Both the position numbers and the translations under genes were made by a program. From IMG/VR virus record IMGVR_UViG_3300045988_022742, positions 1-37,380 of that record: a stretch of 37,380 bases of DNA, one strand, 5' to 3'. The notes beneath the pieces are model-generated. The model did not search any database, had not been told where the DNA came from, and saw only the letters and a program-made list of their open reading frames with translations. Shown piece by piece: positions 2,491 to 36,104 of this stretch. The first letter of the stretch is position 1. Every line of letters begins with the position of its first letter. This stretch comes from a virus.

Positions 2491-3252
2491 TTATGCTACT
2501 TCAATTAATGGGTCACAATTTACCCAAATTCCACCGATTTTTGCAAGGTTCTTTTGCACATTGACTTCATCAACACGAATTCTTGTAACATAGACAACGG
2601 CATTTGTTGTATGCAATACGTTATCATTATATCCATCAGAATAGCGAACTTTGTCAACCATACGAATTGGAAACCAACCACCTAATTGTGCAAGGTATGC
2701 GCATAAATCGCCATTGATTTGTTTCAATCCTTGATTGCCAATCTTCATTTGTACGGATGTTACGTAGCTTCCTGCGTGCAAGATTTGGTCAATTGCTTCT
2801 ACAGGTTGTGGAATGCTTGGTTTAACTGCTCCTGTGTTTGCGAAACATTTAGGTCTAAACGCAGTATCAAATGTTGCATAATAAGGTAATTTAATTAAAT
2901 TGAATGCTCCACCTTTTCCACCTTGGTTTTGACCTAAGAACCATCCTTGCTTTCCGTCAATATCAGAATCAAAGATTGCGATATGTGAGTATGGAGTCCA
3001 TCCTGCTACTTCTTTAAATACCGCAATGTCTCCCGGTTGCATGATTGAGACTTCATTACAATAGTTCAAGATACCATTTGTTTTTCGATTGTTCCAAATG
3101 TCCTTAACAAAGCTACTTGTTGTGCAATGGATAGCTTGATAGCCTAAATCAATCATGTACTTTGCGAATCCGTCCCAACATTGAGCACCATAGTATCCGT
3201 CAATGTCGAAAGCTTTGCCTAATACGGCTTTTTTGAAATTTTGATAATTTAT
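2491..3252 (-). CDS. Endolysin, N-terminal CHAP peptidase plus C-terminal SH3b-like wall-binding domain (253 aa from ATA at 3252)
   Basis: The catalytic motif GAQCWD and the later SHIAIF His motif fit a CHAP domain. The Cys lies upstream of the first ATG (3156). The frame is open from 3267 with no ATG/GTG/TTG. ATA lies 8 nt after AAGGAGGA. Confidence 0.8.
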   Translation of the reverse strand: MNYQNFKKAVLGKAFDIDGYYGAQCWDGFAKYMIDLGYQAIHCTTSSFVKDIWNNRKTNGILNYCNEVSIMQPGDIAVFKEVAGWTPYSHIAIFDSDIDGKQGWFLGQNQGGKGGAFNLIKLPYYATFDTAFRPKCFANTGAVKPSIPQPVEAIDQILHAGSYVTSVQMKIGNQGLKQINGDLCAYLAQLGGWFPIRMVDKVRYSDGYNDNVLHTTNAVVYVTRIRVDEVNVQKNLAKIGGIWVNCDPLIEVA

Positions 3253-5627: not shown

Positions 5628-5891
5628 ATTCTTGTCTAGATACATTTCTTTTTCACTGCTTTTTCTTGGTGGTAAAATTGCGCTATATTTCTCTACTTCA
5701 TCATACTTGTTCTTAATCCTTTTAATGATTCTATTTACGCTAGAAACACTCATATTTAATCTGTCGGCTTGTTCTCTAACTGTCCATCCGTATATTCTAG
5801 TTCTTAGAATCATTTCTTCATCTTTAGTTAATAAAGCTAGATTAATAAACTCTTCTAAAATAATCTTATTCCAAGGTACTTGATTCGTCAT
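5625..5891 (-). CDS. Small sigma-70 region-4/LuxR-type HTH protein (88 aa)
   Basis: EEMILRTRIYGWTVREQADRLNMSVSSVNRIIKRIKNKY resembles a region-4 HTH. The gene overlaps the holin 3' end by 26 nt. Confidence 0.55.
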   Translation of the reverse strand: MTNQVPWNKIILEEFINLALLTKDEEMILRTRIYGWTVREQADRLNMSVSSVNRIIKRIKNKYDEVEKYSAILPPRKSSEKEMYLDKN

Positions 5892-6366
5892 TGTCTTCGT
5901 TAACGATTTTATCCGCTACTTCCAAACCTTTAGTTAATACACTAGGCACGCTATATCCACATTGCACAAGGTTCTCAATAATGCTACGCACTTCATTAAT
6001 ACATAAAGAAGCCAATACAAACCAACCTAATAATGTGGTTACATGGAAATCAATCCCTAGCATTTTTCCAATCTCAACCAAGAATGCACTGAATGTGAAC
6101 GCAACTACAATCATAATCCAATAGCCTAGCTTTTTAAGGACTCCAATCCATCCTTTATTGCTATTGATTTTGTGATTAATCGCCGACTTCATGCACCCTG
6201 TAATATAATCCACGACGTTCATAAATAAGAAGAACGCAAATAAATACCAATGCTCACCTAATACGTATGTTAATACGGCAACGGCTACACCACCAATTGC
6301 ATTCATCTTGTGTAGAAAATACATACTTCTTGTTATTTGTTTAAATCCTCCATTTTTCTTTTCTAT
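5866..6366 (-). CDS. Holin, phage_holin_4 (LL-H/TcdE-like) family (166 aa from ATA at 6366)
   Basis: Motifs VDYITG and NEVRSIIENL...GYSVP with several TM segments. The track's GTG (6375) overlaps the SD itself. ATA lies 8 nt after AAGGAG. Confidence 0.75.
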   Translation of the reverse strand: MEKKNGGFKQITRSMYFLHKMNAIGGVAVAVLTYVLGEHWYLFAFFLFMNVVDYITGCMKSAINHKINSNKGWIGVLKKLGYWIMIVVAFTFSAFLVEIGKMLGIDFHVTTLLGWFVLASLCINEVRSIIENLVQCGYSVPSVLTKGLEVADKIVNEDNDESSTLE

Positions 6367-7393: not shown

Positions 7394-8266
7394 CTATAAA
7401 CCTAAATACCTTTCATTGTAGTAAACTGTGCAAGCTAGATTTGTATCTCCATTGTCTGCCGTATATCCTATGATATTCTCACCTAACTGAATCGTCATAT
7501 CGTTGAATGATGATGTTCTGTCAACTTTACCGATACAATTCACACCGTTCTTTTTGATTGATATAGGTTCAGAAACTAAATCAATTTCTAATACATCGCC
7601 ATTGTGTAGCGTATCTAATACACGAATATATTTATCCTTGTTAAATAGTTTCGGATTCGTTACCTCTCCAAACGCTTCAATAACGGCTCTGCAATATGTT
7701 TCTGTATCACCTTGATTGTCAATATAGATTTCTCTAGCGAATGTAAATGTTCCAAAGTTTACACCTGTCTCCGGTATTTCAAAGTTGAACGCTAAACCTT
7801 CACCAATTTCTGCGATATTCCTTGCAAAATCATCAAATGAAAGCAATAAAGGTTGTGTGCATAGAATCGTAAAGTTAAGCTCTAAATCTTTGTAGATGTT
7901 AACTGTAGGCAAGCTATACGCATATAAATGACCTCTACAATATTTCTTTTCTCCCATGTACTCAACTATCACATCAAATAAATGAGAATATTGGAAGAAG
8001 CGCCGTAGCTTCTCCCTTTCTTCTCTTTTTTCTTCTAGCGAACCTTTGAAGGTAGCTTTCACGCTTCTTTCTTTCGTTGGAATACGTGAACCGATTAATC
8101 TAGCACCATTTCCAAATGCATTGTCTTGAGTTGTGTATGAAGGTGCTACATAATCAAATCCATCTAAACCACTACTTGAAGGAATCCTCCATCTTTTTTG
8201 GTTGTCAATTTCAAATTCTTTACCATCATCCCTACGGACGATAACTCTTACCTTATTGATATCTAT
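7394..8266 (-). CDS. Distal tail protein Dit (phage tail family), 290 aa from ATA at 8266
   Basis: A 68-codon in-frame extension upstream of the track's GTG (8062) has no canonical start. ATA lies 7 nt after GGAGGTG and overlaps the TMP stop codon (AATAG). Confidence 0.75.
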   Translation of the reverse strand: MDINKVRVIVRRDDGKEFEIDNQKRWRIPSSSGLDGFDYVAPSYTTQDNAFGNGARLIGSRIPTKERSVKATFKGSLEEKREEREKLRRFFQYSHLFDVIVEYMGEKKYCRGHLYAYSLPTVNIYKDLELNFTILCTQPLLLSFDDFARNIAEIGEGLAFNFEIPETGVNFGTFTFAREIYIDNQGDTETYCRAVIEAFGEVTNPKLFNKDKYIRVLDTLHNGDVLEIDLVSEPISIKKNGVNCIGKVDRTSSFNDMTIQLGENIIGYTADNGDTNLACTVYYNERYLGL

Positions 8267-10842
8267 TGGACTACACCTCCATATCCATATCTTGCTTGCA
8301 TACGTAACATTCTAGCGATTTCATCCGGACTTTGTGCTTTATTGTAGAAGTTGATAGTCTGTCCATTGTTATTTGTCGTTACGCTTGGCATGATTTGAGC
8401 CATATCTTTAGCTACGGCACGAATCCACGCTTTATTTCTTTCTAAAGGTACAACGGCTTCTGCTCCATTACCTTCTAGTAAACCAATTTGCCCACGCTTC
8501 AATACACCACCACGCTCTAGTCTTGGAATCCTTCCAATGTGTACACCGGGAATCTTATTGATGATACCGATTGCACCGTTAATACCACCGATAACACCAT
8601 TTACCATTCCTTTTACACTTCCAACTAATGAACTAACTGCTCCTTCAATTCCGCCAAATACACCACTTACAAATCCTTTTAAACCGCTCCATGCATTTTG
8701 TATGCCTTGTAGAACATTTGAAATTTTATTCCCTACATTATCCATTACACCTTGAACTTTAGACCAAATGCCATTAAATACATCAGAAACCGTAGATTTG
8801 ATATTATTGAAATATTTATTGATATTATCAACAACACCTTTCACTTTGTCTCCAACTCTATTCATTGTATCTTGAATCTTACTCCAAATATTGTTTATGA
8901 TGTCCGAAACCGTCTTAAATAAATTGCTTACGAATCCAATAATAGCAGTAACTACTTCGCTAACCTTGCTCCAAATATTTTGAGCAACCGTTAATATTAC
9001 AGACCAAATATTCGCTACAATTGTAGCTACAATTTGAACAATAGGCATGATAAATCCTAGTATTGTCGCAATCGCAGTCCCAACATACGTTACAACCATA
9101 TTTATAAATGAAATGATTCCACTTACTACACTTCCAACAACTTGAAGGATAGATGTTATTACAGGAATCATGCTAACTACCGTTTGAATAATCATCTTAA
9201 TAATTGCTAGAATCGGTGGACCTACTACACTAAGAATCTTTTGAGCTTGGTTAACAACATTTTGAATTGCACTGCCAATCTTGCCTATAATTTCTTTTGC
9301 GATAGGTTCAAGTGCAACTTTCATTTCGTCAATCGCTTTTCTAACTTCATCAAAAGCAGGAGCTAACACCTCTGAAACTTGACTTGTCAATTCTGTAATT
9401 CCACTTGTATCAATCTTGCTTAATACATTTGAAATTACATCACCAACTTTAGCAAATCCTTGTTGAATACCTTGTATAGCTACTGTAATCAATCCAATGA
9501 TACCTGCAAGAATAGGAGTAATAAGTTCGCCTATTGGAGTAAATGAATCAAGAAATGTACGCCCTAAGCCACTTAAAGCGTTCTTTAAGCCACCATTTGC
9601 AATTTCTTTAACTTTATCCATTGCTCCTTCTACATCTTTATATTTATTCCCTACTGTCGTTAAGGACTGAATGAATCCGGCGTTGAAATCTTCTCCCATT
9701 GTACCGAAAGCCGTTGCCGATTTATTCAACTTTTCTTGTTCATTTGTAGTCTTTGAAATATCTTCTACAATCGCATTTACAACATCTTTCTGAGTTGCTC
9801 TTCCTTCTTGCCAAGCTTTAAAAACATCTTGCGTCTTGGTATCAAAACTATCTAAAGCTCCTTCAATAGTTCCATCAACTAACCTTGTGGTAACTTCGTT
9901 GATTGCGTCATTTACTTTATCAAGGTTATAAGCTCCACCATCTAATCCATTCTGCATTAATTGGAAGTATTCTTCTGCCGAATATCCTGCTTGCTTGAAT
10001 TTACCGGAGTATTCTGAAATGTTGTCGCCTAACTCATCTGATTTGTTTAAACCATTCTGAGCACCTGTAGCCATAAGGTCAAAAGCTTCTTTAGAACTAA
10101 TTCCGAACTGCTTCATTAATTGTTGAGCACCTCTTAATGTTTCGTTCTCGTCCATTCCGAATGTGTCTCTTAATGTCAATAAATCCTCAGTAACATCCTT
10201 TAAATCAACATCACTTATGCCTTGCATTTGTTGCTTGACACGTGCCATCATATCGGCAACATCTGAAACATCTTCACCGAAATTGTTTGACCAAACATCA
10301 CGAGCAATGTTTTTAAATTTGCTCATTTCATTGCTTGAAGCACCTGTTTGAGCTTGAAATTTAGCCATAGCGTCATCTAATTCAGTAGCTTGATTTACAC
10401 CTGTCTTAATTGCTAATGCCATTCCACCGATAGCTCCTGCTACGGCAGTAACACCAACAACACCTCCTACGCCTAATCCTGTTAAGGTTTCAGTGATTGT
10501 AGTTGCTTCCGGACTAATATTCTGAATCTTTCCTAATAGTCCATCAAATCCACCTTGAATTGACTCTAAGGCACTGTTACCCACTTGCTTAAATACATCA
10601 AATTTAGAACCTGTTTCTTGCGTTTCTGTCTGTGTATTCTTTTGCTCTTCGTTTAAATCTTTAAGTTTATCTTTGATTTTTGGTGGTGCTTTTGAACCAT
10701 CAGAACCTAGCTTGTCGATTGCTTTTGAAGTTTCTTTGATAGCATTTGTAGTTCCACTTGTGACTTCATGAACGGATTTCATTCCATTCTCTAGACCACT
10801 TGTATCAATCTTTGTATCAAACTTTAATGTTCCGTCTGATAT
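8263..10842 (-). CDS. Tape measure protein (859 aa from ATA at 10842; 839 aa if the ATG at 10782 is used)
   Basis: Size, position, TM-rich centre and IWSK repeat motifs. ATA directly follows an in-frame TGA and lies 8 nt after GGAGGTGG. The ATG at 10782 lacks an SD. Confidence 0.8.
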   Translation of the reverse strand: MSDGTLKFDTKIDTSGLENGMKSVHEVTSGTTNAIKETSKAIDKLGSDGSKAPPKIKDKLKDLNEEQKNTQTETQETGSKFDVFKQVGNSALESIQGGFDGLLGKIQNISPEATTITETLTGLGVGGVVGVTAVAGAIGGMALAIKTGVNQATELDDAMAKFQAQTGASSNEMSKFKNIARDVWSNNFGEDVSDVADMMARVKQQMQGISDVDLKDVTEDLLTLRDTFGMDENETLRGAQQLMKQFGISSKEAFDLMATGAQNGLNKSDELGDNISEYSGKFKQAGYSAEEYFQLMQNGLDGGAYNLDKVNDAINEVTTRLVDGTIEGALDSFDTKTQDVFKAWQEGRATQKDVVNAIVEDISKTTNEQEKLNKSATAFGTMGEDFNAGFIQSLTTVGNKYKDVEGAMDKVKEIANGGLKNALSGLGRTFLDSFTPIGELITPILAGIIGLITVAIQGIQQGFAKVGDVISNVLSKIDTSGITELTSQVSEVLAPAFDEVRKAIDEMKVALEPIAKEIIGKIGSAIQNVVNQAQKILSVVGPPILAIIKMIIQTVVSMIPVITSILQVVGSVVSGIISFINMVVTYVGTAIATILGFIMPIVQIVATIVANIWSVILTVAQNIWSKVSEVVTAIIGFVSNLFKTVSDIINNIWSKIQDTMNRVGDKVKGVVDNINKYFNNIKSTVSDVFNGIWSKVQGVMDNVGNKISNVLQGIQNAWSGLKGFVSGVFGGIEGAVSSLVGSVKGMVNGVIGGINGAIGIINKIPGVHIGRIPRLERGGVLKRGQIGLLEGNGAEAVVPLERNKAWIRAVAKDMAQIMPSVTTNNNGQTINFYNKAQSPDEIARMLRMQARYGYGGVVQ

Positions 10843-11803: not shown

Positions 11804-12310
11804 TTATACTTCTGATGTACCTTCTGTGAAGGTTACTGTTCCATCTGCTACCTTTGCAACGCCGACACGAATGTCGCTTGCAAAGTTAATATTGAAGTTG
11901 ATTTTTGAATCGACACCGCTTAATGTATCGAAAATCAATTTAGCGTCAACTTCCCACGCTTTATAGCCTTTAGTTTTGTCTCCGTCAAACATAAATACAA
12001 GTAAAGCTTTTGTATTTACTTCTTCGTTGTTTGGTACGGATTTCATCATTTGTTCGTAAATGTATTCAAAATCATCTTCGCCTTTAATCATTGTTAAATC
12101 TTGCGAAATCTGAGGTGAATAACTCTTTAATGATTCTGTTGGGTTCTTATCTGCGATAAAGTCATACGTTTCAGTTTCACTGTTAAACGAAATATCTAAA
12201 GTTGTAGACTTTTTAATTCGCTTGTAACCTGTTCCCATTTCTAAGAACAATCCAATCATATACTTCTTGACTGTCTGTCCTGTATTTACTTCAGTTCCTT
12301 GAGTTGCTAT
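11804..12310 (-). CDS. Major tail protein (168 aa from ATA at 12310)
   Basis: Position and size. ATA lies 8 nt after AAGGAG and overlaps the upstream TAA (TAATA). The ATG at 12259 has only a weak AAGAAG. Confidence 0.65.
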   Translation of the reverse strand: MATQGTEVNTGQTVKKYMIGLFLEMGTGYKRIKKSTTLDISFNSETETYDFIADKNPTESLKSYSPQISQDLTMIKGEDDFEYIYEQMMKSVPNNEEVNTKALLVFMFDGDKTKGYKAWEVDAKLIFDTLSGVDSKINFNINFASDIRVGVAKVADGTVTFTEGTSEV

Positions 12311-13867: not shown

Positions 13868-14017
13868 CTACTTTTTCTTTTTTTGTTGAGGTTTAGCTTC
13901 CTCTTTTTCTTCTGTAGGTTCTTCTTTTACTTCTTCATCAACTGTAGGTTCTTCACCTTTTGGTTGTTCAACCTCTTTAGTGATAGAAGGATAACCCCAT
14001 CCGATTTCCACTGCCAT
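13868..14017 (-). CDS. Small acidic 49-aa protein with a Lys tail (MAVEIGWGYPSITKE...QQKKKK)
   Basis: Hand-translated. TAATG overlap with the capsid stop codon. Confidence 0.45.
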   Translation of the reverse strand: MAVEIGWGYPSITKEVEQPKGEEPTVDEEVKEEPTEEKEEAKPQQKKKK

Positions 14018-14886
14018 TACTTCGCACTAGCAGATAAGTAAATTCCTGCTACCTTATTTTCGTATACATCTACGATTCCATATTTACGATATTTCAATAC
14101 ATCTGAATCTGATTCGATGTTATTGCTTGCAGGAATCACATTTGAAACAGTGTGTTTATCCCATTTCATTACGGCAGGTTTGTGAACAATTAAGAAGTTG
14201 ATTGCGTGTCCATCCTCTGCCTTTTCGTATCCGCCCTCTAACTCTGTATCTTTTCCACTCAACAATTTAATTTTTGTATAGAATCGTGTTGAAGGTACAG
14301 GAACAATTTTTGCAAATCCTTGTAAAGCTTCACGTGATTTGTATGTATCTAATGCTTTAACGCTATTTAATAATGTTGGTGTTGAATATAAGATACGTTG
14401 TTCGCTAGGAACTTCATCCTCATCCATTTTAGTAACGGCTTTTAATAATGCACTCAAGAACTCTTCTGCCCCTGTATAATCTTCTGCAACTGTTGTGATT
14501 CCTGTTGTGCCGGAAATCTTAGCGAATGTGTAAGCGTCTGCTTCCGGTGCTACCTTTGTACGCATAAGTTCCGCTCCTGCCATACCGAACGCAATGTTCA
14601 TTGATTCTGCGTTATCTTGTGTATCAACTGAGATTTTAGTTCCTCGGTCATAGTCGAATGTAGCAGTTTTCCATTCTAACTTAACTGAGTTACCTGTATA
14701 ACCACTGTTTCTATCGTAGTTTCCTAAACCTTTAACAGAAATTTGTGGATAGATGATTTCTTTTGCATTTGCTCCTGCTCGTACCATTGTAGCGTCTGCA
14801 TTTAAATCACCTGTAACTGAAGCTAACTTATATACCTCATCCAAATTTGAGACATACGTTTTAGCTAATGCAATTTCATTTGGTAT
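14017..14886 (-). CDS. Major capsid protein (289 aa from ATA at 14886)
   Basis: Position after the GP20 scaffold. ATA lies 8 nt after AAGGAGGA. The track's TTG (14844) has no SD, and the frame opens only two codons above the ATA. Confidence 0.8.
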   Translation of the reverse strand: MPNEIALAKTYVSNLDEVYKLASVTGDLNADATMVRAGANAKEIIYPQISVKGLGNYDRNSGYTGNSVKLEWKTATFDYDRGTKISVDTQDNAESMNIAFGMAGAELMRTKVAPEADAYTFAKISGTTGITTVAEDYTGAEEFLSALLKAVTKMDEDEVPSEQRILYSTPTLLNSVKALDTYKSREALQGFAKIVPVPSTRFYTKIKLLSGKDTELEGGYEKAEDGHAINFLIVHKPAVMKWDKHTVSNVIPASNNIESDSDVLKYRKYGIVDVYENKVAGIYLSASAK

Positions 14887-17296: not shown

Positions 17297-18175
17297 CTAA
17301 TAGATTTCTGAGTCAAGTTCTATTTCTACTACTCCACTAAGTGAAAAAACTCCTGTCTTATTGGTATCAGTTGTTATTTCTATATGCGTGTTTCCTATAT
17401 CTCTATATGCGTTAATACCTAATACTTTTTCATCTGCCGAATCTGATAATATAAGTTTATTTGCATCACCATCTGTTGATATTTTAGCAGTTGGATTAGT
17501 TCGCATACATAAATATGGAATATTGAACTTAACTTGTTGTCCTATTTGTCCAACGGTTTCTGCACCTACATTTGCTTGATAATAAAAATAACGACACTTC
17601 ATCAATTCTTCCATATAGTTCGGAGCTACAAAAGGAGTTGCGATTGAGCCTTGTTCTAGTTTTGCCCATTCGATAGTTACTGATGTGCTAGCTTCTATAA
17701 ACATATTAAATTCTGATAAGTTGCTTAGCGTAACAGAATATATTCCTGCCGAAGTGATAGTCACTCTGTTGGTAGGATTTGTGAGATATGCTTTTCCATT
17801 GATGTTTGATACTTTAACAGATAAAGTAAAAACACCTTCTAGTTCTTTTTCAAATTTTTGTGATACCCATGAACCACTATTACCGGTAGATTGAATCATT
17901 AACCCATTATCTGATACTGATACCTTAGCACTCGAGACTCGCCATCTATCTACTGTATATTCAAAGCCACCACTAGTATAGCTTTCTTTTCCTTTCTGAT
18001 TAATTTTAAAATCCGGATTAATCAATAAATTCGGATTACTGAATTTATCTGCCATGTACATTGTAACATCTTCCATACTTGCTTTTTTTAGTCCATTTCC
18101 ATCATGAACTGCAATAATATTTGTATCTTTTAAAGCACTTGCTTTTGTTAAATCTGTGAATTGTTTTCCTGCTAT
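17297..18175 (-). CDS. Receptor-binding/tail fibre protein (292 aa from ATA at 18175)
   Basis: Motifs NLLINPDFKINQKG, DRW and WAKLEQGSIATPF...CRYFY are typical of Firmicute phage fibres. ATA lies 6 nt after AAAGGAGGT. The track's GTG (18199) has no SD. Confidence 0.7.
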   Translation of the reverse strand: MAGKQFTDLTKASALKDTNIIAVHDGNGLKKASMEDVTMYMADKFSNPNLLINPDFKINQKGKESYTSGGFEYTVDRWRVSSAKVSVSDNGLMIQSTGNSGSWVSQKFEKELEGVFTLSVKVSNINGKAYLTNPTNRVTITSAGIYSVTLSNLSEFNMFIEASTSVTIEWAKLEQGSIATPFVAPNYMEELMKCRYFYYQANVGAETVGQIGQQVKFNIPYLCMRTNPTAKISTDGDANKLILSDSADEKVLGINAYRDIGNTHIEITTDTNKTGVFSLSGVVEIELDSEIY

Positions 18176-18188
18176 TAGATTACCTCCT

Positions 18189-18959
18189 TTATTTAACACA
18201 ATACTTCCAATCTGCTAAGATTGTGTTTTCGTTCTCATCTACTACTTGTGTACTAGCGTCTACTAGCAATGGAGTGTAGAAATGATTGTTTAACATCATG
18301 AATTCTAGTTCTGTAATTCTATTTGCAAGTTTACCTGCCGTATCTCCATCTAGAATATCTTTAATTGTTGCGAACCATTCATTCCAAGCATTTCGATTGT
18401 TTTGCATTGCTTCTTCGTTTAGTTCTTTTGTTTCTTTAATTAATTCTTGAACTTGAGTAAATAAGTCCATTGATGTAACGCCTTGAATTGCTCCACGTAC
18501 TACGCCACATCTATTTGAATCAAGCCTTGTATCTGTAATATCTGAACCTTTTACCTCACTTGCGTTGCCTGCTACTGTTACAGTAGCTAACACTAAATCA
18601 TAAACAGAATCACTACGTTGAATTCCGTTGCTAATCTCATCAACAACTAAAGTGATGTTTCTATATGCGTCATTATCATTCAATCTAAGAATAATATTGT
18701 AGTTCTTTGTGTTACTTGATTTCTCTACTGTGATAGTTTCATCATCTTGTTGCCAATAGAACGCTCCATTGATATTCGCTCGTCCTGCTTTCACAATTAG
18801 TGTTAAGCCTTGAGCCTTCTCAACTCTTAAATGGTCTGAGCTAGAATCATCTAAGAACACGCCATTTGTAAAGTAGCTTGAGAATAATCTCCTAAAAGCG
18901 TCATATAATACTAATCTATCGCCATTTCTTGAGACGAATGGAAAATATGTAGTTGCTAT
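18189..18959 (-). CDS. Tail fibre/structural protein, XkdV-like N-terminal type (256 aa from ATA at 18959)
   Basis: The 33-codon in-frame extension FPFVSRNGDRLVLYDAFRRLFSSYFTNGVF matches the conserved N-terminus of this family (F.S..GDR.Y.a.df..yf..fi.nGVF). It has no canonical start. ATA overlaps the portal TAG. Confidence 0.7.
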   Translation of the reverse strand: MATTYFPFVSRNGDRLVLYDAFRRLFSSYFTNGVFLDDSSSDHLRVEKAQGLTLIVKAGRANINGAFYWQQDDETITVEKSSNTKNYNIILRLNDNDAYRNITLVVDEISNGIQRSDSVYDLVLATVTVAGNASEVKGSDITDTRLDSNRCGVVRGAIQGVTSMDLFTQVQELIKETKELNEEAMQNNRNAWNEWFATIKDILDGDTAGKLANRITELEFMMLNNHFYTPLLVDASTQVVDENENTILADWKYCVK

Positions 18960-20359
18960 TCTTCGTCATCCCCCTCTCCATCATCTTGAATTTCTTCATT
19001 TAATAATTCCGTAGCTTCTTCTTCAGTAAAGCCGTATTGCTTCATAAAGTACATAATCTTTAATCTTGGAATATCAAATGTTAATGCGTCGTTTCTTAAC
19101 GCTTGTGCAGTGCTTTGCTTATCCTCAATATATGTATCGTCATAATCAATTGCAATGTCTAATGAATTGATATTAAGCTTTCTGCCTTGTGTTAATTCAT
19201 AGAAGTATGCTATTGCTTGAATAATATCTTGAATATATGCAGTAGATTCTTTACGTTGTGAGTTTACTTCCTTCATTGCGTCTTGATTCTCACCAATGTA
19301 TTCTGTAGCCGTCACGATTCTTCCACTTTCAAAGGTGTATTTCTTTGTACCGAATCCAAACATCATTGATAAGATACTTAATGCAGTTTCTAACGATTGA
19401 ACAACTTCTGCCGTCCTTACTGTCGGATTATATTCTTGCCATAAAGCTTTTTCTTCCGGTAGCTTATCCCTACCTAACTGAACAAAAATCTTTTTCATTT
19501 GTGGATTCATCTTAATCTTTCCATTCTCGTCTTTTTGCATTAATGCTTCATTCACAAGAACAATCTTATCTGATTTCAACAAATCACGATTCCACATTGT
19601 CATTGTTAAATCGATTGTTTTCAATGGAGCAATTGCGCTCCAAATCTTCGGCAAGCCGTAACCTTGCATTTGTAAGTTGTTTACCTTTGCGTTTCTCATA
19701 ATTGCAAACGGCTTTACAACATCTAATTGAACAATCTGAGCACGGTCTTTTATTTCTTCGCCTGTATCTTTGAAATAATGCGTTTCTGCAATATATCTTT
19801 CGTCTTGCCCTTTTAAGAACATGACCATCACATATACTTTTTTCAACTTCTCATAATTTACTCCAACGAAAGCTACCTCAACGATTTCATCATTAATAAC
19901 AGTCAATGGAAGGATATTCATTGAATCACAATAATTGATTCTAATCTCCCCTCCACTGAATGTACCATCTTCATAAATCTCGGCATTTGATACCGTTACA
20001 TAAGCTCCTACTGTGCCGTTTGCAGACATTTGCTCAACTTGCTTCCTATACATAACATCAAATCTATTCTTCGTTAGAATGTCTGAAATAATGTCATTTG
20101 TTGTACTGTCCTCAGTTGCGTTTATATCTAGAATTTCAATTAGGTTTGCGTCATCCTCGCACAAACGTTTTGCAAAGTCTGTTTTATCTAGCGTGTATTC
20201 CTCGTTATTCAAGGTGTATGCCGTATGAAATTCTGTTTCGGTATTTGTATACCACTTATTACACAATTCAATAATCTCAATTGCGTTTGTATCTACATAA
20301 TACCCTCTTTCGTTAAGGTAGTTTTGAAACCACGGTCTACGTGTGTTAGATGTTTCTAT
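18956..20359 (-). CDS. Portal protein (SPP1 Gp6-like), 467 aa from ATA at 20359
   Basis: Size and position. A 31-codon in-frame extension precedes the track's TTG (20266). ATA lies 6 nt after GGAGG of AAGGAGGT and two codons after the in-frame TAA. Confidence 0.8.
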   Translation of the reverse strand: METSNTRRPWFQNYLNERGYYVDTNAIEIIELCNKWYTNTETEFHTAYTLNNEEYTLDKTDFAKRLCEDDANLIEILDINATEDSTTNDIISDILTKNRFDVMYRKQVEQMSANGTVGAYVTVSNAEIYEDGTFSGGEIRINYCDSMNILPLTVINDEIVEVAFVGVNYEKLKKVYVMVMFLKGQDERYIAETHYFKDTGEEIKDRAQIVQLDVVKPFAIMRNAKVNNLQMQGYGLPKIWSAIAPLKTIDLTMTMWNRDLLKSDKIVLVNEALMQKDENGKIKMNPQMKKIFVQLGRDKLPEEKALWQEYNPTVRTAEVVQSLETALSILSMMFGFGTKKYTFESGRIVTATEYIGENQDAMKEVNSQRKESTAYIQDIIQAIAYFYELTQGRKLNINSLDIAIDYDDTYIEDKQSTAQALRNDALTFDIPRLKIMYFMKQYGFTEEEATELLNEEIQDDGEGDDEE

Positions 20360-22181: not shown

Positions 22182-23489
22182 CTAGACGTGTCTTGCTTCT
22201 TCTGTTTCAAGTTCTGTAATCTCCTCTGTTCTTTTTAAGAATGTTACTGAATTATCATATTCGTAAATGATGTCATTATTTTCATCAAATCCTACAGGCT
22301 TTAGAACCTTTTCAAAAATCTTGTAAGGTGATTGTCCTGCTTTTGGTGAATTCCATAAATAATGGAGATAATCTTTCATTGTCATTCCTTTGAATTTTGC
22401 TCTATTCTCTGATGAGTTAGTGTTGAACCCAATAGCTTTATTAAATTGAAAATCTAAGAAATACATATCCTTTTCAATATCTTTCCAATGTACTCTTCCA
22501 TGTTTCTTTGCAATTTGTAAAGCTCCACTAAAATTTCCTCTTGAGTAATCCCAATTCTTGTCTAATGCGCAACAACAACAGTTATTTGAGCATTCTTTAA
22601 AATGTGCGTCTGATACATAGAATCGCATTCCTAATTCATCACATAGATTTTTCATCTTTTGAATGTATTTAGCCTTTACTTTTCTATTCAGTCTTAAATA
22701 TCCACTTCCATTTGAATGTTTTCTATAAAAATCTACAATATCAAATCCTGCACATTCACTAATCACATCATAATGCTCCTTAGCTTGTTTAATAGAGCGC
22801 ATTTCTAAGCAAAAGAACTCCGTAGTAACTGCCGTTGCTCCTGCCTTTTTGGCTTCTCTAATTAAATCTAGATAGGTTTTATCTGATACCCCTACAATAA
22901 ACGGACGCAATCTTAAAGTTGCACCACCTTTTGATAGTTCAGTATATTTTTTCATTGCTTCAAGTCTTTTTCTTGGACTTGGCACACCTACTTCGATTTT
23001 TCTTGCGTCATCTTCATCTAGTGTGATGATACTAAACTTAACATTCCAATTATCTGCACCTTTGAATAATTCTTGATATTTAGGGTCGTTAAATACCCAT
23101 GCCGATTTCGTACTAAAACAGATAGGATAGTTAATAGATTTCAAATACTTAAGCATTTCATAGGTTTTGCCATATTTCTTTTCGTATCCGTCGAATTGGT
23201 CTGATAAACCACCATATTGAATAGGGCGTCTGTCTTTAATGTATTTATAGAATTGTGATTTTGTATCTTCTCCACTGAAAATCTTTTTGCATTTCTCAAC
23301 ATTGATACATTTCACATCTTTATTAAGATATGCTTCTTTACTTGCACCAATACCTCTTTGATATTGGCTAAAACAATAAACACATCCAAATGAACAGTTG
23401 GAATATGTATCAAATGTCACCGGTAATGAGCAATCTGCAATTTCTCCTGTCCATCTTGGTGATTGATATGTCTCACTAATTTTATTCAC
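22182..23489 (-). CDS. Radical SAM protein (SplB/COG1533-like)
   Basis: CX3CX2C motif CSFGCVYC near the N-terminus and an extra CCCC cluster. GTG start 6 nt after GGAGGA. Confidence 0.7.
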   Translation of the reverse strand: MNKISETYQSPRWTGEIADCSLPVTFDTYSNCSFGCVYCFSQYQRGIGASKEAYLNKDVKCINVEKCKKIFSGEDTKSQFYKYIKDRRPIQYGGLSDQFDGYEKKYGKTYEMLKYLKSINYPICFSTKSAWVFNDPKYQELFKGADNWNVKFSIITLDEDDARKIEVGVPSPRKRLEAMKKYTELSKGGATLRLRPFIVGVSDKTYLDLIREAKKAGATAVTTEFFCLEMRSIKQAKEHYDVISECAGFDIVDFYRKHSNGSGYLRLNRKVKAKYIQKMKNLCDELGMRFYVSDAHFKECSNNCCCCALDKNWDYSRGNFSGALQIAKKHGRVHWKDIEKDMYFLDFQFNKAIGFNTNSSENRAKFKGMTMKDYLHYLWNSPKAGQSPYKIFEKVLKPVGFDENNDIIYEYDNSVTFLKRTEEITELETEEARHV

Positions 23490-23490
23490 C

Positions 23491-24252
23491 TTATATCCTC
23501 CATTTCCTTTTCAACAATACTGTTCTATCTTTTTTTGTTACCATATCCGGATATTTCTTTACTAGGCGTCTAAGCCATAGTTCTTGTTCTCCTCTTTGGT
23601 ATCTGTCATACATTCCGCCTTTTTCCTTTCCCATGTAAGATTTATTTGGCACAATGTTATTTATTCTAGCTATGATATATCCTTGTCTAATCATTCTTAG
23701 ATTCAATTCATAATCCTCTAGCATATCCCATTTCTCATCAAATTTGATTTCTTCACTTTTAATAACAAAACACAATCCACCTTGTACGAGTGTATTGAAT
23801 GAATATGTTTCACCTTTCCTAACATAGCTAGCTATGTTCATATTATTGGTTGTGGGTAGACATCCCATGAAGTGAATATTGTTCTTTTGCATAAATGAGA
23901 ATACATCATTAAATGTCTTATCCAACTCAGTGATTTTTTTCTGCGCTCCGCATTTCTTTCCTTGCTTTTCTTCCCATTTCCTAAAATCTCTGATGTCATC
24001 ATCTAGTAAGATGATTTTTGCCCCATTTTCAAAATAATTTAGAATGTTATTTCTATTCGAAGCTACGTTATTTCCACGCCTAGTAATGATTTGAGCTTGA
24101 CTCCCTAATGCTTCAACATAAGTTTTGAAATCATTTGAATCATTTAAGCTAATAACAATTCTTTCATCTTCAATCCCACATTCTTTTAATGCGTGATACG
24201 TTTTACATTTTGGTCTATGGTAACTAGCTATTGCATAATAAATATCATTCAT
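23491..24252 (-). CDS. GT-A-fold glycosyltransferase-like protein
   Basis: N-terminal IASYHRP and a beta-strand plus DXD motif IILLDDDI. Translationally coupled to its neighbours. Confidence 0.45.
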   Translation of the reverse strand: MNDIYYAIASYHRPKCKTYHALKECGIEDERIVISLNDSNDFKTYVEALGSQAQIITRRGNNVASNRNNILNYFENGAKIILLDDDIRDFRKWEEKQGKKCGAQKKITELDKTFNDVFSFMQKNNIHFMGCLPTTNNMNIASYVRKGETYSFNTLVQGGLCFVIKSEEIKFDEKWDMLEDYELNLRMIRQGYIIARINNIVPNKSYMGKEKGGMYDRYQRGEQELWLRRLVKKYPDMVTKKDRTVLLKRKWRI

Positions 24253-24826
24253 GCATTAATTCCTCGACGTCGTAGCACACTTTTAATTCAGTTACCTGCA
24301 ATAGTTTCTCTAAGAATAGTTGTTCTTCCTCTGTTTCATATGTAATGATTACACGTTGCTTTTTTAGTATATCTTCTGAATGTTCGCTAAATGCGTCCAT
24401 AAGCTCATTATCATATCCTTCTGCGTCCATGTCCTCCGTTAATGCACTAATTTCAAAATCGCCAAATCCGAAATCTCTCATATCGATTCCGTCAATTTCT
24501 TCTAGCTCTTCCATTTCTGTTTTTAATGCGTCTAAATCCCAAGACGCTTTTTCTGCCGTTTTATTATCTGCAATTCTAAACGCCTTTACTTGCTCATCTG
24601 TTAAATCATCTGCAACCACGCAAGGAACAGTTTCTAAGCCTAATTCTTGACTAGCTTTATATCGTGTATGACCTGCAACAATCACTCCATTTTTATCAAT
24701 AACAATAGGGACTTTGAAACCGAATTCCTCAATAGAATTTTTAACAAATTTCACTGCTCCATCATTGATTCTAGGGTTATTCTCATAAGGTTTTAGCTCA
24801 TTTAATCTTTTTTCAACAATTTTCAT
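24245..24826 (-). CDS. ParB-like N-terminal (ParB/Srx) domain protein
   Basis: LKPYENNPRIND...VIVAGHTRYKASQELGLETVPCVV is a typical ParBc motif. Acidic C-terminus. Confidence 0.7.
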   Translation of the reverse strand: MKIVEKRLNELKPYENNPRINDGAVKFVKNSIEEFGFKVPIVIDKNGVIVAGHTRYKASQELGLETVPCVVADDLTDEQVKAFRIADNKTAEKASWDLDALKTEMEELEEIDGIDMRDFGFGDFEISALTEDMDAEGYDNELMDAFSEHSEDILKKQRVIITYETEEEQLFLEKLLQVTELKVCYDVEELMHE

Positions 24827-25110: not shown

Positions 25111-25135
25111 AAAAGAACCGAGACAAACGCTCGGT
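25111..25135 (-). terminator. Rho-independent terminator ending the tRNA-like transcription unit
   Basis: - strand reads ACCGAG-CGTTTGT-CTCGGT followed by TCTTTT. Confidence 0.6.
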
Positions 25136-25215: not shown

Positions 25216-25291
25216 TGGTTGCAGGAGAAGGAATTGCACCGTTCGACCTCTAGCTAATAAGACTAGTGAGCTACTACTGCTCTATCCTGCT
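25216..25291 (-). tRNA. tRNA-like gene, anticodon UAU (decodes AUA), with initiator-tRNA-like acceptor and D-arm features. The T-stem is non-canonical.
   Basis: Hand-folded cloverleaf: AGCAGGA-UA-GAGC-AGUAGUA-GCUC-A-CUAGU-CUUAUUA-GCUAG-AGGUC-GAA(C)GG-UGCAAUU-CCUUC-UCCUGCA-A-CCA. The CCA end is encoded. Deviations: A1xA72 mismatch, no GG in the D-loop, U37, one bulged C in the T-stem. Confidence 0.55.
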
Positions 25292-25297
25292 AAAACA

Positions 25298-25306
25298 ATT
25301 ATTACA
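25298..25306 (-). promoter_or_regulatory. Candidate extended -10 (TGTAATAAT) 6 nt upstream of the tRNA 5' end
   Basis: RC of 25298-25306 reads TGTAATAAT. It lies between the ArpU terminator and the tRNA. Confidence 0.35.
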
Positions 25307-25308
25307 TG

Positions 25309-25331
25309 AAAAAATGCTCACATTGTGAGCA
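25309..25331 (-). terminator. Rho-independent terminator overlapping the ArpU-like gene stop codon
   Basis: - strand reads TGCTCAC-AAT-GTGAGCA followed by TTTTTT. Confidence 0.6.
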
Positions 25332-25644
25332 CTTTCTTTAAGTTCTTATTTATTTTTCTTGGAATCTCTTCTCTTGCATAACCTACAATATTAGATGTCT
25401 TTTCTGCGCTGAATCCCTTTATATATCTATACTCAATCATTGTTCGAGTTGTATCATCAAGTTGGCTTAATTTATCTTTTACATAGTTCATTCTTCTTGC
25501 ATAATCCGCATGAGCTAAGAATAGCTCGGCTTTTAAAGGATAAATTGCTTCATCCCTTTGTAGCTCTGCTATCTTTTGCTCATAATATGTGTATGATTGG
25601 CATTCACACAAGAAGTGTCTCTTAATATCTTCATACGTGCTCAT
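25318..25644 (-). CDS. ArpU/RinA-like late transcriptional regulator (sigma region-4-like HTH)
   Basis: The C-terminal MIEYRYIKGFSAEKTSNIVGYAREEIPRKINKNLKKV is HTH-like. It sits at the early/late boundary. Confidence 0.55.
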   Translation of the reverse strand: MSTYEDIKRHFLCECQSYTYYEQKIAELQRDEAIYPLKAELFLAHADYARRMNYVKDKLSQLDDTTRTMIEYRYIKGFSAEKTSNIVGYAREEIPRKINKNLKKVLTM

Positions 25645-25844
25645 GAACTGTATACCTTATACAATCTATCCTTTAATTCGCCAACTTCACTTCTTAATTT
25701 CTTGATTTCTTTAGCTTGAGTATGAATTGTTGCGTTTCTTTCTTTTAAAGTCTGCTCCAATTCAATATTCTTCCTTCCTAGTCTATTGTTTTTAGAAATT
25801 AACTCTTTAATCCTTTCTTCATAATTCATTTCTATTAAAACCAC
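25641..25844 (-). CDS. Coiled-coil 67-aa protein
   Basis: ORF track. ATGA coupling to the next gene. Confidence 0.6.
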   Translation of the reverse strand: MVLIEMNYEERIKELISKNNRLGRKNIELEQTLKERNATIHTQAKEIKKLRSEVGELKDRLYKVYSS

Positions 25845-29585: not shown

Positions 29586-30203
29586 TTATACCTCTGCATA
29601 TCTAACTCCTAAACTATTCTTTACAATTCCACGCAACATAATTGATATTGCAGTAGGTGTATATCCTGTGTTCCTTGCACATTGTGCAATTGATTCATAT
29701 TCAACTCCATTCAATACCACTTTCTTTTGACATACCTTGCCACCGTCAACACCATTGTTCACAAGATATAAGTTTTTAACGTGTTTCTTTCCTTTTAAGC
29801 GAACTTTGTAACTTCTGCTCAAATCACCGATAAATGCTTTATATGCTAATCTGTATAGTTGATACATCTTCCCATTTATACAAACTCTGTAAGCTCCTTT
29901 ATCAAATGAAGGATGAATCTTGCTTTTAACTCCATCTTTGCTAACCGAAATTACATTTAAACGATTTGAAATGTACCATCTTCTGCCTGTCTTGGATGTT
30001 TCAATTAATTCGTACATTTCTGTATCGCTCGCTTTCTTTTCGTCTGCTTCATCTTCAATCAATACACATCCTTTATAAAGTCGTTGATACATAACGTGTG
30101 CTTCAAATTGTGCTTTCGTTAACCCTAACTCATCCATTACCTTTTTGTCACTTACAAACCCTTTAAATTCATTTGTATACGGTTCTAACATCATGTAATC
30201 CAT
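29586..30203 (-). CDS. Homing-endonuclease-like DNA-binding protein (NUMOD4/HNH_3-like core, NUMOD1-like C-terminal HTH); catalytic His apparently absent
   Basis: WYISNRLNVISVSKDG...YRVCINGKMYQLYRLAYKAFIG and LNGVEYESIAQCARNTGYTPTAISIML. Confidence 0.4.
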   Translation of the reverse strand: MDYMMLEPYTNEFKGFVSDKKVMDELGLTKAQFEAHVMYQRLYKGCVLIEDEADEKKASDTEMYELIETSKTGRRWYISNRLNVISVSKDGVKSKIHPSFDKGAYRVCINGKMYQLYRLAYKAFIGDLSRSYKVRLKGKKHVKNLYLVNNGVDGGKVCQKKVVLNGVEYESIAQCARNTGYTPTAISIMLRGIVKNSLGVRYAEV

Positions 30204-30804: not shown

Positions 30805-31560
30805 CTACGCTCTTAATATTTCTTTCCTTACTCGTTCCATTTCTTTCTGTACATCTGCATACGATTGATTGCTTTCTTGTGCATAGAATTTAGAATCAAG
30901 TTTTACAGGATTGTTCTTATTTCTTTTCATCCATTCATCATGTACCCACTTTTGTAGTACTAATGAATGGTTCTTGTATTTCTTTCCGGATGTTTCAATA
31001 TATTCATCTAATATCTTTATATGCTCATCTAATGAATCACCATATAAATCTAATAGGTGTGTGTGTTCTTTATCTGTTAAAAGAACGTGTTTGAATTCTC
31101 CGTATTTGTGTTTACTTTGTTTATTAGTATTTTTGTTATTAGTATTTGGTTTATTAGTATATTTATAAGTACCTACATTTTGTAAACCTACATCTTGTAA
31201 CCCTACATTATGTAGACCTACATTTTGTATGTCTTGCTCAAGAGGTACGTTTTGTGGGTCTTGAGGTGTTTCACTGAAAATGTATTGATATTCAATTTTA
31301 CTTCTTCCGTCTTTATTTGGATAAAGCTTTTCTATTCTTAAATACCCATTTTCTTTTAATTCAGATAATGCTCCATTTACTGCTCTTTCACCATCTTTTA
31401 CAATTCCAACTAATCCATTTACTGTATAATGCCAATCATCCGGTAAACTAAGAACAACACTTAATAAGCCTATTGCTTTAAGTGATAAGCGTTTATCTTT
31501 TAAATGTGTATTGCTCATCACTGTATAGTTTCTATTCTTAATAACTCTAATTACTGCTAT
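30805..31560 (-). CDS. Replication initiator/replisome organiser with an N-terminal winged-helix domain (251 aa from ATA at 31560)
   Basis: YTVMSNTHLKDKRLSLKAIGLLSVVLSLPDDWHY...LSELKENGYL is the typical Rep N-terminal domain. ATA lies 8 nt after GGAGG. The TTG and GTG alternatives sit on or inside the SD. Confidence 0.7.
   Translation of the reverse strand: MAVIRVIKNRNYTVMSNTHLKDKRLSLKAIGLLSVVLSLPDDWHYTVNGLVGIVKDGERAVNGALSELKENGYLRIEKLYPNKDGRSKIEYQYIFSETPQDPQNVPLEQDIQNVGLHNVGLQDVGLQNVGTYKYTNKPNTNNKNTNKQSKHKYGEFKHVLLTDKEHTHLLDLYGDSLDEHIKILDEYIETSGKKYKNHSLVLQKWVHDEWMKRNKNNPVKLDSKFYAQESNQSYADVQKEMERVRKEILRA
31121..31231. repeat. Probable origin of replication inside the rep gene: 3 x 15-bp AT-rich repeats (ttattagtat core) then 4 x 15-bp iterons CCTACATYTTGTARN
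   Basis: Read directly. AT-rich repeat copies start at 31121, 31136 and 31151. Iterons occupy 31172-31231. Confidence 0.7.
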
Positions 31561-34569: not shown

Positions 34570-34732
34570 ACACCTCCATTCTAGATTCGCAAGTGTTGAT
34601 TTGATTTACTTCTTGCAAATCCCTAACATTCAATTGATTCGCAATTTCTTTTGCTTCTGCACTGTTATGTGCTTCAACCTCGAACGTAACATTTGCAGTT
34701 ACGTCGAAGGTTACGAAATATGTTCTAGTCAT
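34553..34732 (-). CDS. Hypothetical 59-aa protein (start MTRTYFV)
   Basis: The ATG at 34732 lies 6 nt after GAGGTG. The track's ATG at 34756 has no SD. Confidence 0.6.
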   Translation of the reverse strand: MTRTYFVTFDVTANVTFEVEAHNSAEAKEIANQLNVRDLQEVNQINTCESRMEVYESDY

Positions 34733-34853
34733 GTTTCTCACCTCTTTTCGATTCATCTAAGATACAAGCGATATATCCTTGATGAAATTCTGAAAGCTCA
34801 TAGCCTTTCTTTTGTAGTTCGCCTAAGGCTTCAAAAATTCTCTTGTCTAGTAT
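34725..34853 (-). CDS. Hypothetical 42-aa protein apparently initiated at ATA
   Basis: It fills an otherwise empty 172-nt gap. ATA lies 5 nt after GGAGGTG. The stop codon overlaps the next gene's start (ATGACTAG). No canonical start exists in this frame. Confidence 0.4.
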   Translation of the reverse strand: MLDKRIFEALGELQKKGYELSEFHQGYIACILDESKRGEKHD

Positions 34854-34905
34854 TGTTTCACCTCCATGACCTGTCTCATCAGTGCTAGTAGGTCATCTCT
34901 AGCAG

Positions 34906-35877: not shown

Positions 35878-36104
35878 TATTTGTTACCTCCGATTCTTTT
35901 GATTTCTCTAAGTTCTTCAATTGTTCCGTTTGTTGTATCAAGCCATTTAAAATAAGTAGCTCTTTCTTCAACAACTCCTCTATATGGATGATAGCCATTT
36001 GCATATAGCTCATTAATAAATGCTTTCTTTGTAGGGTATTCCATTTCAATGAATACCTTTCTACCTGTATGTTTTTCAACTGCTAATGTTACGTATGTTT
36101 TCAT
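35877..36104 (-). CDS. First early-operon protein (75 aa, MKTYVTLAVEK...); no recognisable HTH
   Basis: The ATG at 36104 follows GGAGGAAC. It sits in the Cro position but does not resemble Cro. Confidence 0.6.
   Translation of the reverse strand: MKTYVTLAVEKHTGRKVFIEMEYPTKKAFINELYANGYHPYRGVVEERATYFKWLDTTNGTIEELREIKRIGGNK

Follow-up and report, generated by a model that had tools for sequence, protein, structure and literature searches.

Translation is known to start at AUA codons in mitochondria, where they are read by a modified tRNA-Met, a near analogue of the system described here, and anticodon mutants of E. coli tRNA-fMet provide an older, further analogue from the laboratory. Engineered initiator tRNAs (amber, AAC; bioRxiv 10.1101/2021.05.25.445580, 10.64898/2025.12.21.695813) follow the same logic, since an initiator body carrying a new anticodon acts at the complementary non-AUG codon behind a Shine-Dalgarno (SD) site, and which amino acid is used is set by the synthetase that reads the new anticodon, as we propose below for a phage tRNA. 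In gut phages, stop codons are recoded by suppressor tRNAs (PMC10879173, PMC11210395). Here we describe a tRNA gene with an initiator-type body and the anticodon UAU, located at positions 25216-25291 (- strand) of a 37,380-nt stretch of phage DNA (IMG/VR record IMGVR_UViG_3300045988_022742, positions 1 to 37,380; this whole stretch is called the window), together with the ATA start codons that accompany it. From sequence comparisons, we put at about 80% the probability that this tRNA serves as the initiator for the ATA starts.

The engineered initiators are laboratory constructs, whereas the phage system is natural and conserved, with ATA starts in a dozen genes and a co-adapted pair of bases, U37 in the tRNA and A at position -1 of the mRNA. 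The resemblance to stop-codon recoding (PMC10879173, PMC11210395) is that a phage tRNA alters the reading of a codon, that virion and lysis genes are involved and that gene callers mis-annotate these genes, but here it is the start codon that would be affected, and initiation in the ribosomal P site instead of elongation. Our literature search returned neither a natural UAU initiator tRNA nor a case of start-codon recoding by a phage; subscription journals lay mostly outside that search, which leaves such an absence unproven.

A sequence-only reading of the window had proposed a 76-nt cloverleaf with an encoded CCA end and the anticodon UAU on the - strand of a 225-bp gap between genes, and this proposal was confirmed both by the sequence and by a covariance model. 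The - strand of 25216-25291 reads AGCAGGAUAGAGCAGUAGUAGCUCACUAGUCUUAUUAGCUAGAGGUCGAACGGUGCAAUUCCUUCUCCUGCAACCA, whose arms match the proposed cloverleaf one by one, and the Rfam tRNA model (RF00005) matches 25219-25291 over the full model (1-71) with 48.0 bits against a gathering score of 29 (E over the whole window, 2.1e-7), the sole Rfam match in the 37 kb. Other alleles of the tRNA score 43-62 bits with this model. The minimum-free-energy fold approximates the cloverleaf and departs from it in the anticodon arm only, and the folding-energy z-score against shuffled sequences is -0.8, a value that is uninformative on the stability of the tRNA. All the details listed in that reading proved correct, namely A1xA72, G2:C71, C3:G70, A73, A11:U24, U37, a D-loop without GG and a bulged C in the T-stem. 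The anticodon U34-A35-U36 (25259-25257) is followed by U37 (25256), and the resulting UAUU (25256-25259, - strand) is complementary to AAUA in mRNA; the anticodon loop, CUUAUUA, is invariant in the low-GC alleles. The elbow of the window allele is unusual, with a D-loop AGUAGUA that lacks G18, a T-loop UGCAAUU in which G55 replaces U55, and a T-stem interrupted by the bulged C, so that neither the canonical elbow (G18/G19 with U55/C56) nor an unbroken 5-bp T-stem is present.

Related loci, which are given L-numbers, were gathered through the large terminase, DNA patterns and exact-protein look-ups, yielding about 90 copies of the tRNA; the loci bearing it fall into the window group, lineage B (L081, L119 and L136) and lineage C (L137 and L139-L143). 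In lineages B and C the flanks are different and the structural genes more divergent (portal 58-62% identical), and overall the tRNA is kept across phages with portal and terminase only 58-68% identical. It was found in 86 of the 86 loci that contain the regulator gene preceding it and at least 150 nt downstream. In a 14-row alignment, pairing holds in 99.6% of the stem cells but in no more than 37-54% of them once the partners are slid, and ten stem pairs are altered on both sides. The closest group contains nine alleles, one of which has exchanged the anticodon stem C-G/U-A/A-U for U-A/C-G/G-C through three compensatory double substitutions; the swapped stem, UCGGU/GCCGA, is near that of E. 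coli tRNA-fMet, UCGGG/CCCGA. In another allele of this group (L022) the T-stem bulge is shifted by one position and five pairs are kept.

The canonical elbow and T-stem are present in lineages B and C and in the same-locus alleles L107, L118, L121, L125 and L126. Fully canonical alleles with the same flanks (for example L107, L118, L121 and L125) have the D-loop AGUGGUG and the T-arm GGAGG-UUCAAAU-CCUUC, with no bulge; because some phages carry such an allele at the same locus and with the same flanks, the window allele is, on comparison, the derived form, and it is also the commonest one. When the window copy (25216-25291) is set against L107 (7928-8002) and L118 (909-983), the loss of G18, the change to G55 and the T-stem bulge are seen to occur together in the same alleles.

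The acceptor stem reads CGCAAGG...CCUUGCA in lineage B (C1xA72) and GGCAGAG...CUCUGCA in lineage C (G1xA72). Base 1 is thus A, C or G depending on the lineage while A72 is constant, leaving 1:72 mismatched in all three lineages, and because the pair stays mismatched while base 1 changes, the mismatch appears to be selected for. G2:C71, C3:G70, A11:U24, G30:C40, A73, the CCA end and the loop CUUAUUA with its U37 are invariant over the three lineages. The pattern of substitutions points to purifying selection that maintains the gene as a tRNA, and we consider it almost certain that this phage-encoded tRNA gene is functional.

The A11:U24 pair in the D-stem is a signature of initiator tRNAs. With bacterial tRNA-fMet the phage tRNA shares, in addition to this pair, the 1:72 mismatch, G2:C71, C3:G70, A73, G30:C40, the variable loop AGGUC and the 3' end GCAACCA, and the canonical phage alleles also share the T-loop UUCAAAU. 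The likeness to tRNA-fMet noted in the sequence-only reading held when compared with a verified E. coli sequence (carried by all 5426 E. coli genomes at 100% identity), to which the D-stem GAGC/GCUC, the variable loop and the 3' end are identical. Overall identity to E. coli tRNA-fMet is 67-77%, whereas the E. coli elongators for Met, Ile(GAU), Ile(CAU), Ala and Gln reach 53-62%, with 56-62% given for Met and Ile elongators. The four best full-length blastn matches among GenBank phages are all annotated as tRNA-Met, and three more partial matches, in Vibrio phages, lie under the label 'hypothetical protein'.

It has been shown that the 1:72 mismatch together with 2:71 and 3:70 is the main determinant for methionyl-tRNA formyltransferase (Fmt), that of the three G:C pairs of the anticodon stem G30:C40 is the essential one and alone suffices, and that natural au/GC/gu initiators exist (PMC5389676). 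In this notation the phage tRNAs are au/GC/ug or GC/GC/ug, the pairs 29:41, 30:40 and 31:39 being A:U, G:C and U:G in the window and G:C, G:C and U:G in the variant allele. The earlier statement that the three anticodon-stem G:C pairs are lacking therefore stands for the full triplet, but G30:C40 is retained. Besides having only one or two of these three pairs and U:G at 31:39, the phage tRNA differs from tRNA-fMet in its anticodon (UAU, not CAU) and in U37 in place of A37, a combination found in all low-GC alleles; it is also phage-encoded, has A, C or G as base 1 and is presumably not charged with Met, and the window allele adds its non-canonical elbow. It is thus neither a tRNA-fMet by definition (anticodon, position 37 and three-G:C rule) nor a normal tRNA-Ile(UAU) elongator. 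The tRNA-Met of Mycobacterium phage Phabba (L127, 301-375), one of the best full-length blastn matches, is likewise phage-borne, has an initiator-type stem (A1xC72, G2:C71, C3:G70) and is 76% identical to the window tRNA, but it keeps CAU and A37 and reads normal AUG starts.

Other initiator-like tRNAs with a UAU anticodon were also encountered. Two IMG/VR contigs of 64% G+C, L063 (4204-4280) and L080 (3022-3098), carry a tRNA(UAU) that is 81% identical to E. coli tRNA-fMet, has a paired U1:A72 and has A37; it may have arisen from an initiator and serve as an elongator at rare AUA codons, and it was rejected as a member of an ATA-start system in view of U1:A72, A37 and the lack of ATA starts on the contig. 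Chromosomal tRNA-fMet-like genes with a UAU anticodon occur in metagenome-assembled genomes (MAGs) of Collinsella (L101, 93-171) and Terracidiphilus (L100, 4515-4591). In the Collinsella copy the 5' acceptor strand is unpaired with the 3' strand, and this copy may be an integration scar.

The many SD-ATA gene starts that had been noted in the window were also borne out, with 10 firm cases, in which a strong SD stands at normal spacing and the ATA lies 0-15 codons after the upstream in-frame stop, and two more possible ones (25835 and 34853). In the ten genes, all on the - strand like the possible ones, as many as 83 codons of the open frame precede the first ATG, GTG or TTG. The portal gene (18956-20359, 467 aa) has its ATA at 20357-20359, one codon past an in-frame stop and preceded by the SD AAGGAGGT and then 5 nt; this start is conserved in all relatives, and the first canonical start is 32 codons downstream. 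In tblastn, homologues of the portal align from residues 12-16 and share a conserved RGY..D.NA..II block. The head protein gene (18189-18959) has a conserved ATA at 18957-18959, with the first canonical start 35 codons downstream. This ATA overlaps the TAG stop of the portal gene as ATAG (18956-18959), the ATA counterpart of an ATGA overlap, which suggests translational coupling of the head protein to the portal. PHROG profiles align from residue 3 of the head protein and from residue 22 of the portal, so that for both proteins homology reaches upstream of the first canonical start.

For four genes, orthologues interchange ATA and ATG as the start, at one aligned codon that follows the same SD. 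The first, a virion structural gene (17297-18175), starts with ATA (18173-18175) in the window and in the loci L016 and L021; in about 27 orthologues this codon is ATG, with the same SD and the same next codons. The putative major capsid gene (14017-14886), which follows the scaffold gene, has its ATA at 14884-14886 behind the SD AAGGAGG; ATG occupies the aligned codon in the distant orthologues L044 and L049, and ATA is found in lineages B and C. For the putative major tail gene (11804-12310; ATA at 12308-12310, SD AAGGAG), L036 has ATG at this position and the others ATA. The fourth is an early-region gene (30805-31560) encoding an HTH_36, replication-organiser-like protein, whose ATA (31558-31560, SD GGAGGTGA) is conserved in relatives and is replaced by ATG in L041, which lacks the tRNA.

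The remaining firm starts belong to the tail, lysis and unassigned genes. The tape-measure gene (8263-10842) has its ATA at 10840-10842 directly after an in-frame stop and behind the SD AAGGAGGTG; its first ATG is 20 codons downstream and its N-terminus lies within one codon of the L045 start. The gene for the distal tail protein (Dit; 7394-8266, Pfam SPP1_Dit) starts with ATA at 8264-8266 after the SD GGAGGTG, its first canonical start being 83 codons in. A 166-aa gene of unknown function (5866-6366) has the ATA at 6364-6366 with the SD AAGGAGTGA at 8-nt spacing, and an endolysin-like gene (2491-3252) has the ATA at 3250-3252 behind AAGGAGG, 37 codons upstream of the first canonical start and with the CHAP domain beginning at residue 18. 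As for the two possible cases, a 64-aa gene just upstream of the regulator gene has a probable ATA start at 25833-25835, 6 nt after the SD TAGGAGGTGG; an alternative ATG is found two codons later, the sole upstream GTG lies inside the SD, and the arrangement is the same in L118, L121 and L125. The other is a small early open reading frame (ORF; 34725-34853) with a possible ATA start at 34851-34853, again preceded by GGAGGTGA; the open frame (34725-34892, - strand, 55 codons) is without any ATG, GTG or TTG and may represent a small early gene missing from the annotation.

Among ORFs with a strong SD and no nearby canonical start, ATA is the commonest codon at SD spacing (135, the next codon reaching 58). 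Taken with the ATA/ATG interchange, the comparisons indicate that ATA is really used as a start codon in this phage. Several ATA codons proposed by an automatic caller were rejected, those at 35880, 24829 and 16767 being 'ATA ATG' tandems with an adjacent or better-spaced ATG and those at 29601, 13088, 21376 and 23673 being internal sites. TadA requires a tRNA-Arg-like TACG hairpin, and A-to-I editing of the mRNA was rejected given that the sites are without such a hairpin. We also rejected a systematic G-to-A sequencing error caused by the phage DNA-modification genes, as ATA starts persist in relatives without that gene island and in integrated prophages. Because gene callers disallow ATA starts, the public gene calls are short at the N-terminus of every ATA-start gene; the portal, for instance, is annotated from an internal TTG, with a length of 436 aa in place of 467 aa, and false intergenic gaps of about 95 nt result.

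The base preceding the ATA start provides a further link between these genes and the tRNA. All 88 of the 88 distinct contexts, representing 25 of 25 gene clusters, have A as base -1, as compared with 50 of 89 clusters for ATG starts and 33% of internal in-frame ATA codons (Fisher p = 7e-6); a few of these -1 A's derive from a TGA or TAA stop abutting the ATA and most do not. Because the -1 A is complementary to U37 in all clusters, these contexts suggest a four-base pairing of AAUA with UAUU, in which A(-1) would pair with U37, and we infer that the fourth pair helps to stabilise a codon-anticodon helix made only of A:U pairs. A similar interaction has been described in E. coli, where position 37 of the initiator is complementary to the base before the start codon and pairs with it, A37U and A37G initiators favouring complementary or wobble -1 bases (PMC10018350). 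There the effect of A37:U(-1) is modest and modulatory, whereas in the phages U37:A(-1) looks obligatory. The ATA context is also marked on its other side, base +4 being G in 63 of 88 contexts versus 97 of 366 for ATG starts, with GCA or GAA as the second codon in most cases.

The tRNA and the ATA starts also occur together. Loci of the window group that bear the tRNA have 2-7 SD-ATA starts each; in lineage B such starts are found in the portal, capsid and major tail genes and in the regulator gene beside the tRNA, and in lineage C in the portal, the capsid and two other genes. Relatives without the tRNA (L040-L060 and L138) have no ATA starts and carry ATG at the homologous sites, and some of them are of similar G+C content (L040 and L041 at 34-36%, L138 at 33% with a portal 52% identical). 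Apparent cases of ATA starts without the tRNA are contigs that end upstream of the tRNA site or L036, whose allele was found by nhmmer. In the host flank, all 9 of 9 genes start with ATG, a small sample. The survey of related phages that the sequence-only reading had called for therefore finds the two features together in three lineages and jointly absent elsewhere, as in a recoding system, in which the anticodon of the tRNA matches the codon used non-canonically and the two co-occur. The proposal that an initiator-derived tRNA has been retargeted to AUA is thus supported by conservation, by the initiator hallmarks, by the interchange of ATA and ATG and by this co-occurrence.

Several observations weigh against such a role. 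ARAGORN called no tRNA in the window, missing the allele that the Rfam covariance model detects; the miss is probably due to the 1-nt T-stem bulge and the non-canonical elbow, and more canonical alleles at the same locus in relatives are called by this program as tRNA-Ile(tat). The absence of G18, the G55 and the T-stem bulge could impair folding, recognition by RNase P and contacts with the ribosome. Three consecutive G:C pairs at 29:41, 30:40 and 31:39 are not present, with one in the window and two in the variant, and the 31:39 U:G pair (pyrimidine:purine) is unlike every variant in PMC5389676. U37 is highly unusual for any tRNA. One ATA start in L137 (lineage C) has G at -1, which could wobble with U37. 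The search for ATA starts required a strong SD, and the set is biased to such sites. Finally, ATA starts occur also in the early gene 31560, so that a simple lock on late genes is not established.

Both of the simpler alternatives named in the sequence-only reading, an elongator tRNA-Ile(UAU) and a pseudogene, fit the data poorly. According to the first, this would be an ordinary elongator tRNA supplementing the decoding of internal AUA codons, and the ATA starts would be read inefficiently by host tRNA-fMet or with the aid of another phage factor. Codon-supplementing tRNAs are common in phages, AUA is an ordinary internal codon here (15 per 1000 codons, 20% of Ile codons), the canonical alleles receive the tRNA-Ile(tat) label, and the contig L063, with its initiator-like tRNA(UAU), U1:A72, A37 and no ATA starts, indicates that elongator-type relatives may exist. 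Of the features of an elongator tRNA-Ile(UAU), the anticodon is present, but a Watson-Crick 1:72 pair and a purine (t6A) at position 37 are not; the 1:72 mismatch, which in bacteria disfavours EF-Tu and favours Fmt, is found in all low-GC lineages, and U37 stands where elongators reading ANN codons need A37 (t6A). In E. coli, the body determinants for isoleucyl-tRNA synthetase (IleRS) are C4:G69, U12:A23 and C29:G41, which may differ in Firmicutes; the window tRNA has A4:U69, G12:C23 and A29:U41 at these positions, with A73 and A38 present. The elongator tRNA-Ile(UAU) of Mycoplasma mobile and that of B. subtilis tilS suppressors likewise read AUA with UAU, and charging of the phage tRNA is probably by IleRS as well, the B. 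subtilis enzyme charging a U34-A-U tRNA well (PMC3919564); unlike the phage tRNA, they act in elongation, pair base 1 with base 72 and carry a purine at position 37. Moreover, the phage tRNA has the initiator-type A11:U24 and a body nearer to tRNA-fMet than to Ile or Met elongators, and an elongator role would leave unexplained the co-occurrence with ATA starts and the universal -1 A, besides leaving highly expressed capsid and tail genes with a very weak start. We therefore regard an elongator role as unlikely.

It is also conceivable that the tRNA is a decoy or replacement that counters a host defence or toxin cleaving the initiator tRNA (VapC-type or other anticodon nucleases), the ATA starts being secondary or unrelated. 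Phage tRNAs with anticodon-loop changes that evade tRNA-targeting defences have been documented (PMC10264068), and the loop of the phage tRNA differs from that of tRNA-fMet at positions 34 and 37. Nevertheless, a UAU tRNA cannot replace tRNA-fMet at AUG by Watson-Crick pairing, the ATA starts with their -1 A show that coding sequences co-evolved with the anticodon loop, and no nuclease or toxin partner is seen beside the tRNA, all of which makes this explanation very unlikely. Least probable of all, and close to negligible, is a decaying tRNA pseudogene or att-site remnant without present function, with the ATA starts tolerated as weak starts: in the window allele the D-loop GG is missing, G55 and the T-stem bulge are present, ARAGORN makes no call and folding is no better than for shuffled sequence, but 86 of 86 loci have the gene, its anticodon loop and acceptor end do not vary, its stem changes are compensatory, the bulge is kept even when shifted (L022), the gene is conserved across phages with portal and terminase 58-68% identical, and it lies on the far side of the prophage from the integrase.

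If the tRNA is an initiator for the ATA starts, it would bind in the ribosomal P site through U34-A35-U36-U37 paired with A(-1)-A-U-A and would start translation at sites that host tRNA-fMet (CAU) should read poorly. Methionyl-tRNA synthetase (MetRS) depends on C34. Isoleucine is our guess as the most likely amino acid, because MetRS relies mainly on the CAU anticodon and U34-A-U is accepted by the IleRS of Firmicutes, and the tRNA is probably formylated because the Fmt determinants are intact. Expression of virion and lysis genes would then depend on a translation component supplied by the phage. The regulator gene just upstream of the tRNA appears to start with SD-ATA in L136 (5756), L119 (2377) and L137 (1378), and its translation in lineages B and C would therefore depend on the tRNA as well. 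ATA also starts one early gene and, in lineages B and C, the regulator, which speaks for a tRNA that is active early in the cascade and not late only. Its purpose could be a lock on lytic genes, insulation from host initiation or tuning of N-termini. We propose tentatively, and at slightly less than even odds, the wider scheme in which A-AUA is a private four-base start signal read by the phage initiator tRNA with (formyl-)isoleucine, by which the synthesis of virion, lysis and replication-organiser proteins and, in sister lineages, of the late regulator would be gated and partly insulated from AUG and tRNA-fMet.

The tRNA lies in a 225-nt gap between the stop of a putative late regulator (25318) and the start of the next gene, of the DUF6275 family (25092). 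The regulator (25318-25644, - strand) is a sigma-70 region-4-like, ArpU-like (DUF722) protein, and its linkage to the tRNA directly downstream holds in all 86 loci. Immediately past the regulator gene, on the upstream side of the tRNA, there is a conserved terminator-like hairpin, GTGCTCACAATGTGAGCA, with a T-run (25309-25331, - strand; 25315-25331 in the hairpin scan), followed by a putative extended -10 element, TGTAATAAT (25298-25306, - strand), which is 6 nt upstream of base A1 of the tRNA and is conserved as TGnRATAAT, the 6-nt spacer after it being variable. A second conserved terminator-like hairpin found by the scan, ACCGAGCGTTTGTCTCGGT followed by TCTTTT (25111-25135, - strand), stands about 80 nt beyond the 3' end of the tRNA, just ahead of the next gene's SD. 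The order regulator, hairpin, TGnRATAAT, 6-nt spacer, tRNA, about 80 nt, second hairpin, and SD with ATG of the next gene is conserved. A two-hexamer promoter scan reported no promoter for the tRNA, and the extended -10 element was read from the alignment. It is reasonable to suppose that the tRNA forms its own transcription unit, with an extended -10 promoter, between the two terminator-like hairpins, and transcription may start at or beside A1. In lineages B and C the -10-like elements are farther upstream, so that 5' processing would be needed.

The phage of the window is siphovirus-like and temperate, with 33% G+C and nearly all genes on the - strand. Several proteins that it encodes match RefSeq proteins labelled Holdemanella sp. 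exactly or almost exactly, and related contigs carry an integrase, in the opposite part of the prophage from the tRNA, and a host flank with aro genes at 33% G+C. The family is abundant in human-gut assemblies, the regulator protein being found in 982 index blocks and the portal cluster having 1406 members. Megablast of the tRNA region against GenBank phages and sensitive blastn of the tRNA against E. coli genomes gave no match, and a scan of genome contigs for the tRNA pattern gave three unrelated MAG matches only (Thermoleophilia, Terracidiphilus and Collinsella) and no host genome. A metagenome scan, limited to canonical T-arms, added further alleles and one unrelated match (L124).

Between the tRNA and the small terminase gene, the window carries genes for a ParB-N-like protein, a TET-associated glycosyltransferase (TAGT) and a radical-SAM protein of the PA0069/Rv2578c type (22182-24826, - strand). 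Together they look like a DNA-hypermodification island, and some relatives are without it or have a QueT-containing cassette instead. These three genes were considered as required partners of the tRNA and rejected, as they look DNA-related and are absent from some tRNA-bearing relatives.

A practical consequence holds already, in that the public gene calls for these phages are systematically short at the N-terminus. If confirmed, the phage tRNA would be the first natural initiator tRNA known to us that has a non-CAU anticodon and is dedicated to a non-canonical start codon, and phage recoding would extend beyond stop codons to the start codon. It offers a testable natural case of four-base pairing between initiator and mRNA, through U37 and the -1 A, and, if the reading is true, a natural orthogonal system of translation initiation, with ready-made parts for orthogonal initiation in Firmicutes. 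For the phages themselves, which form a prophage family found very commonly in metagenomes of the human gut, the finding suggests that lytic genes are controlled at an additional, new level.

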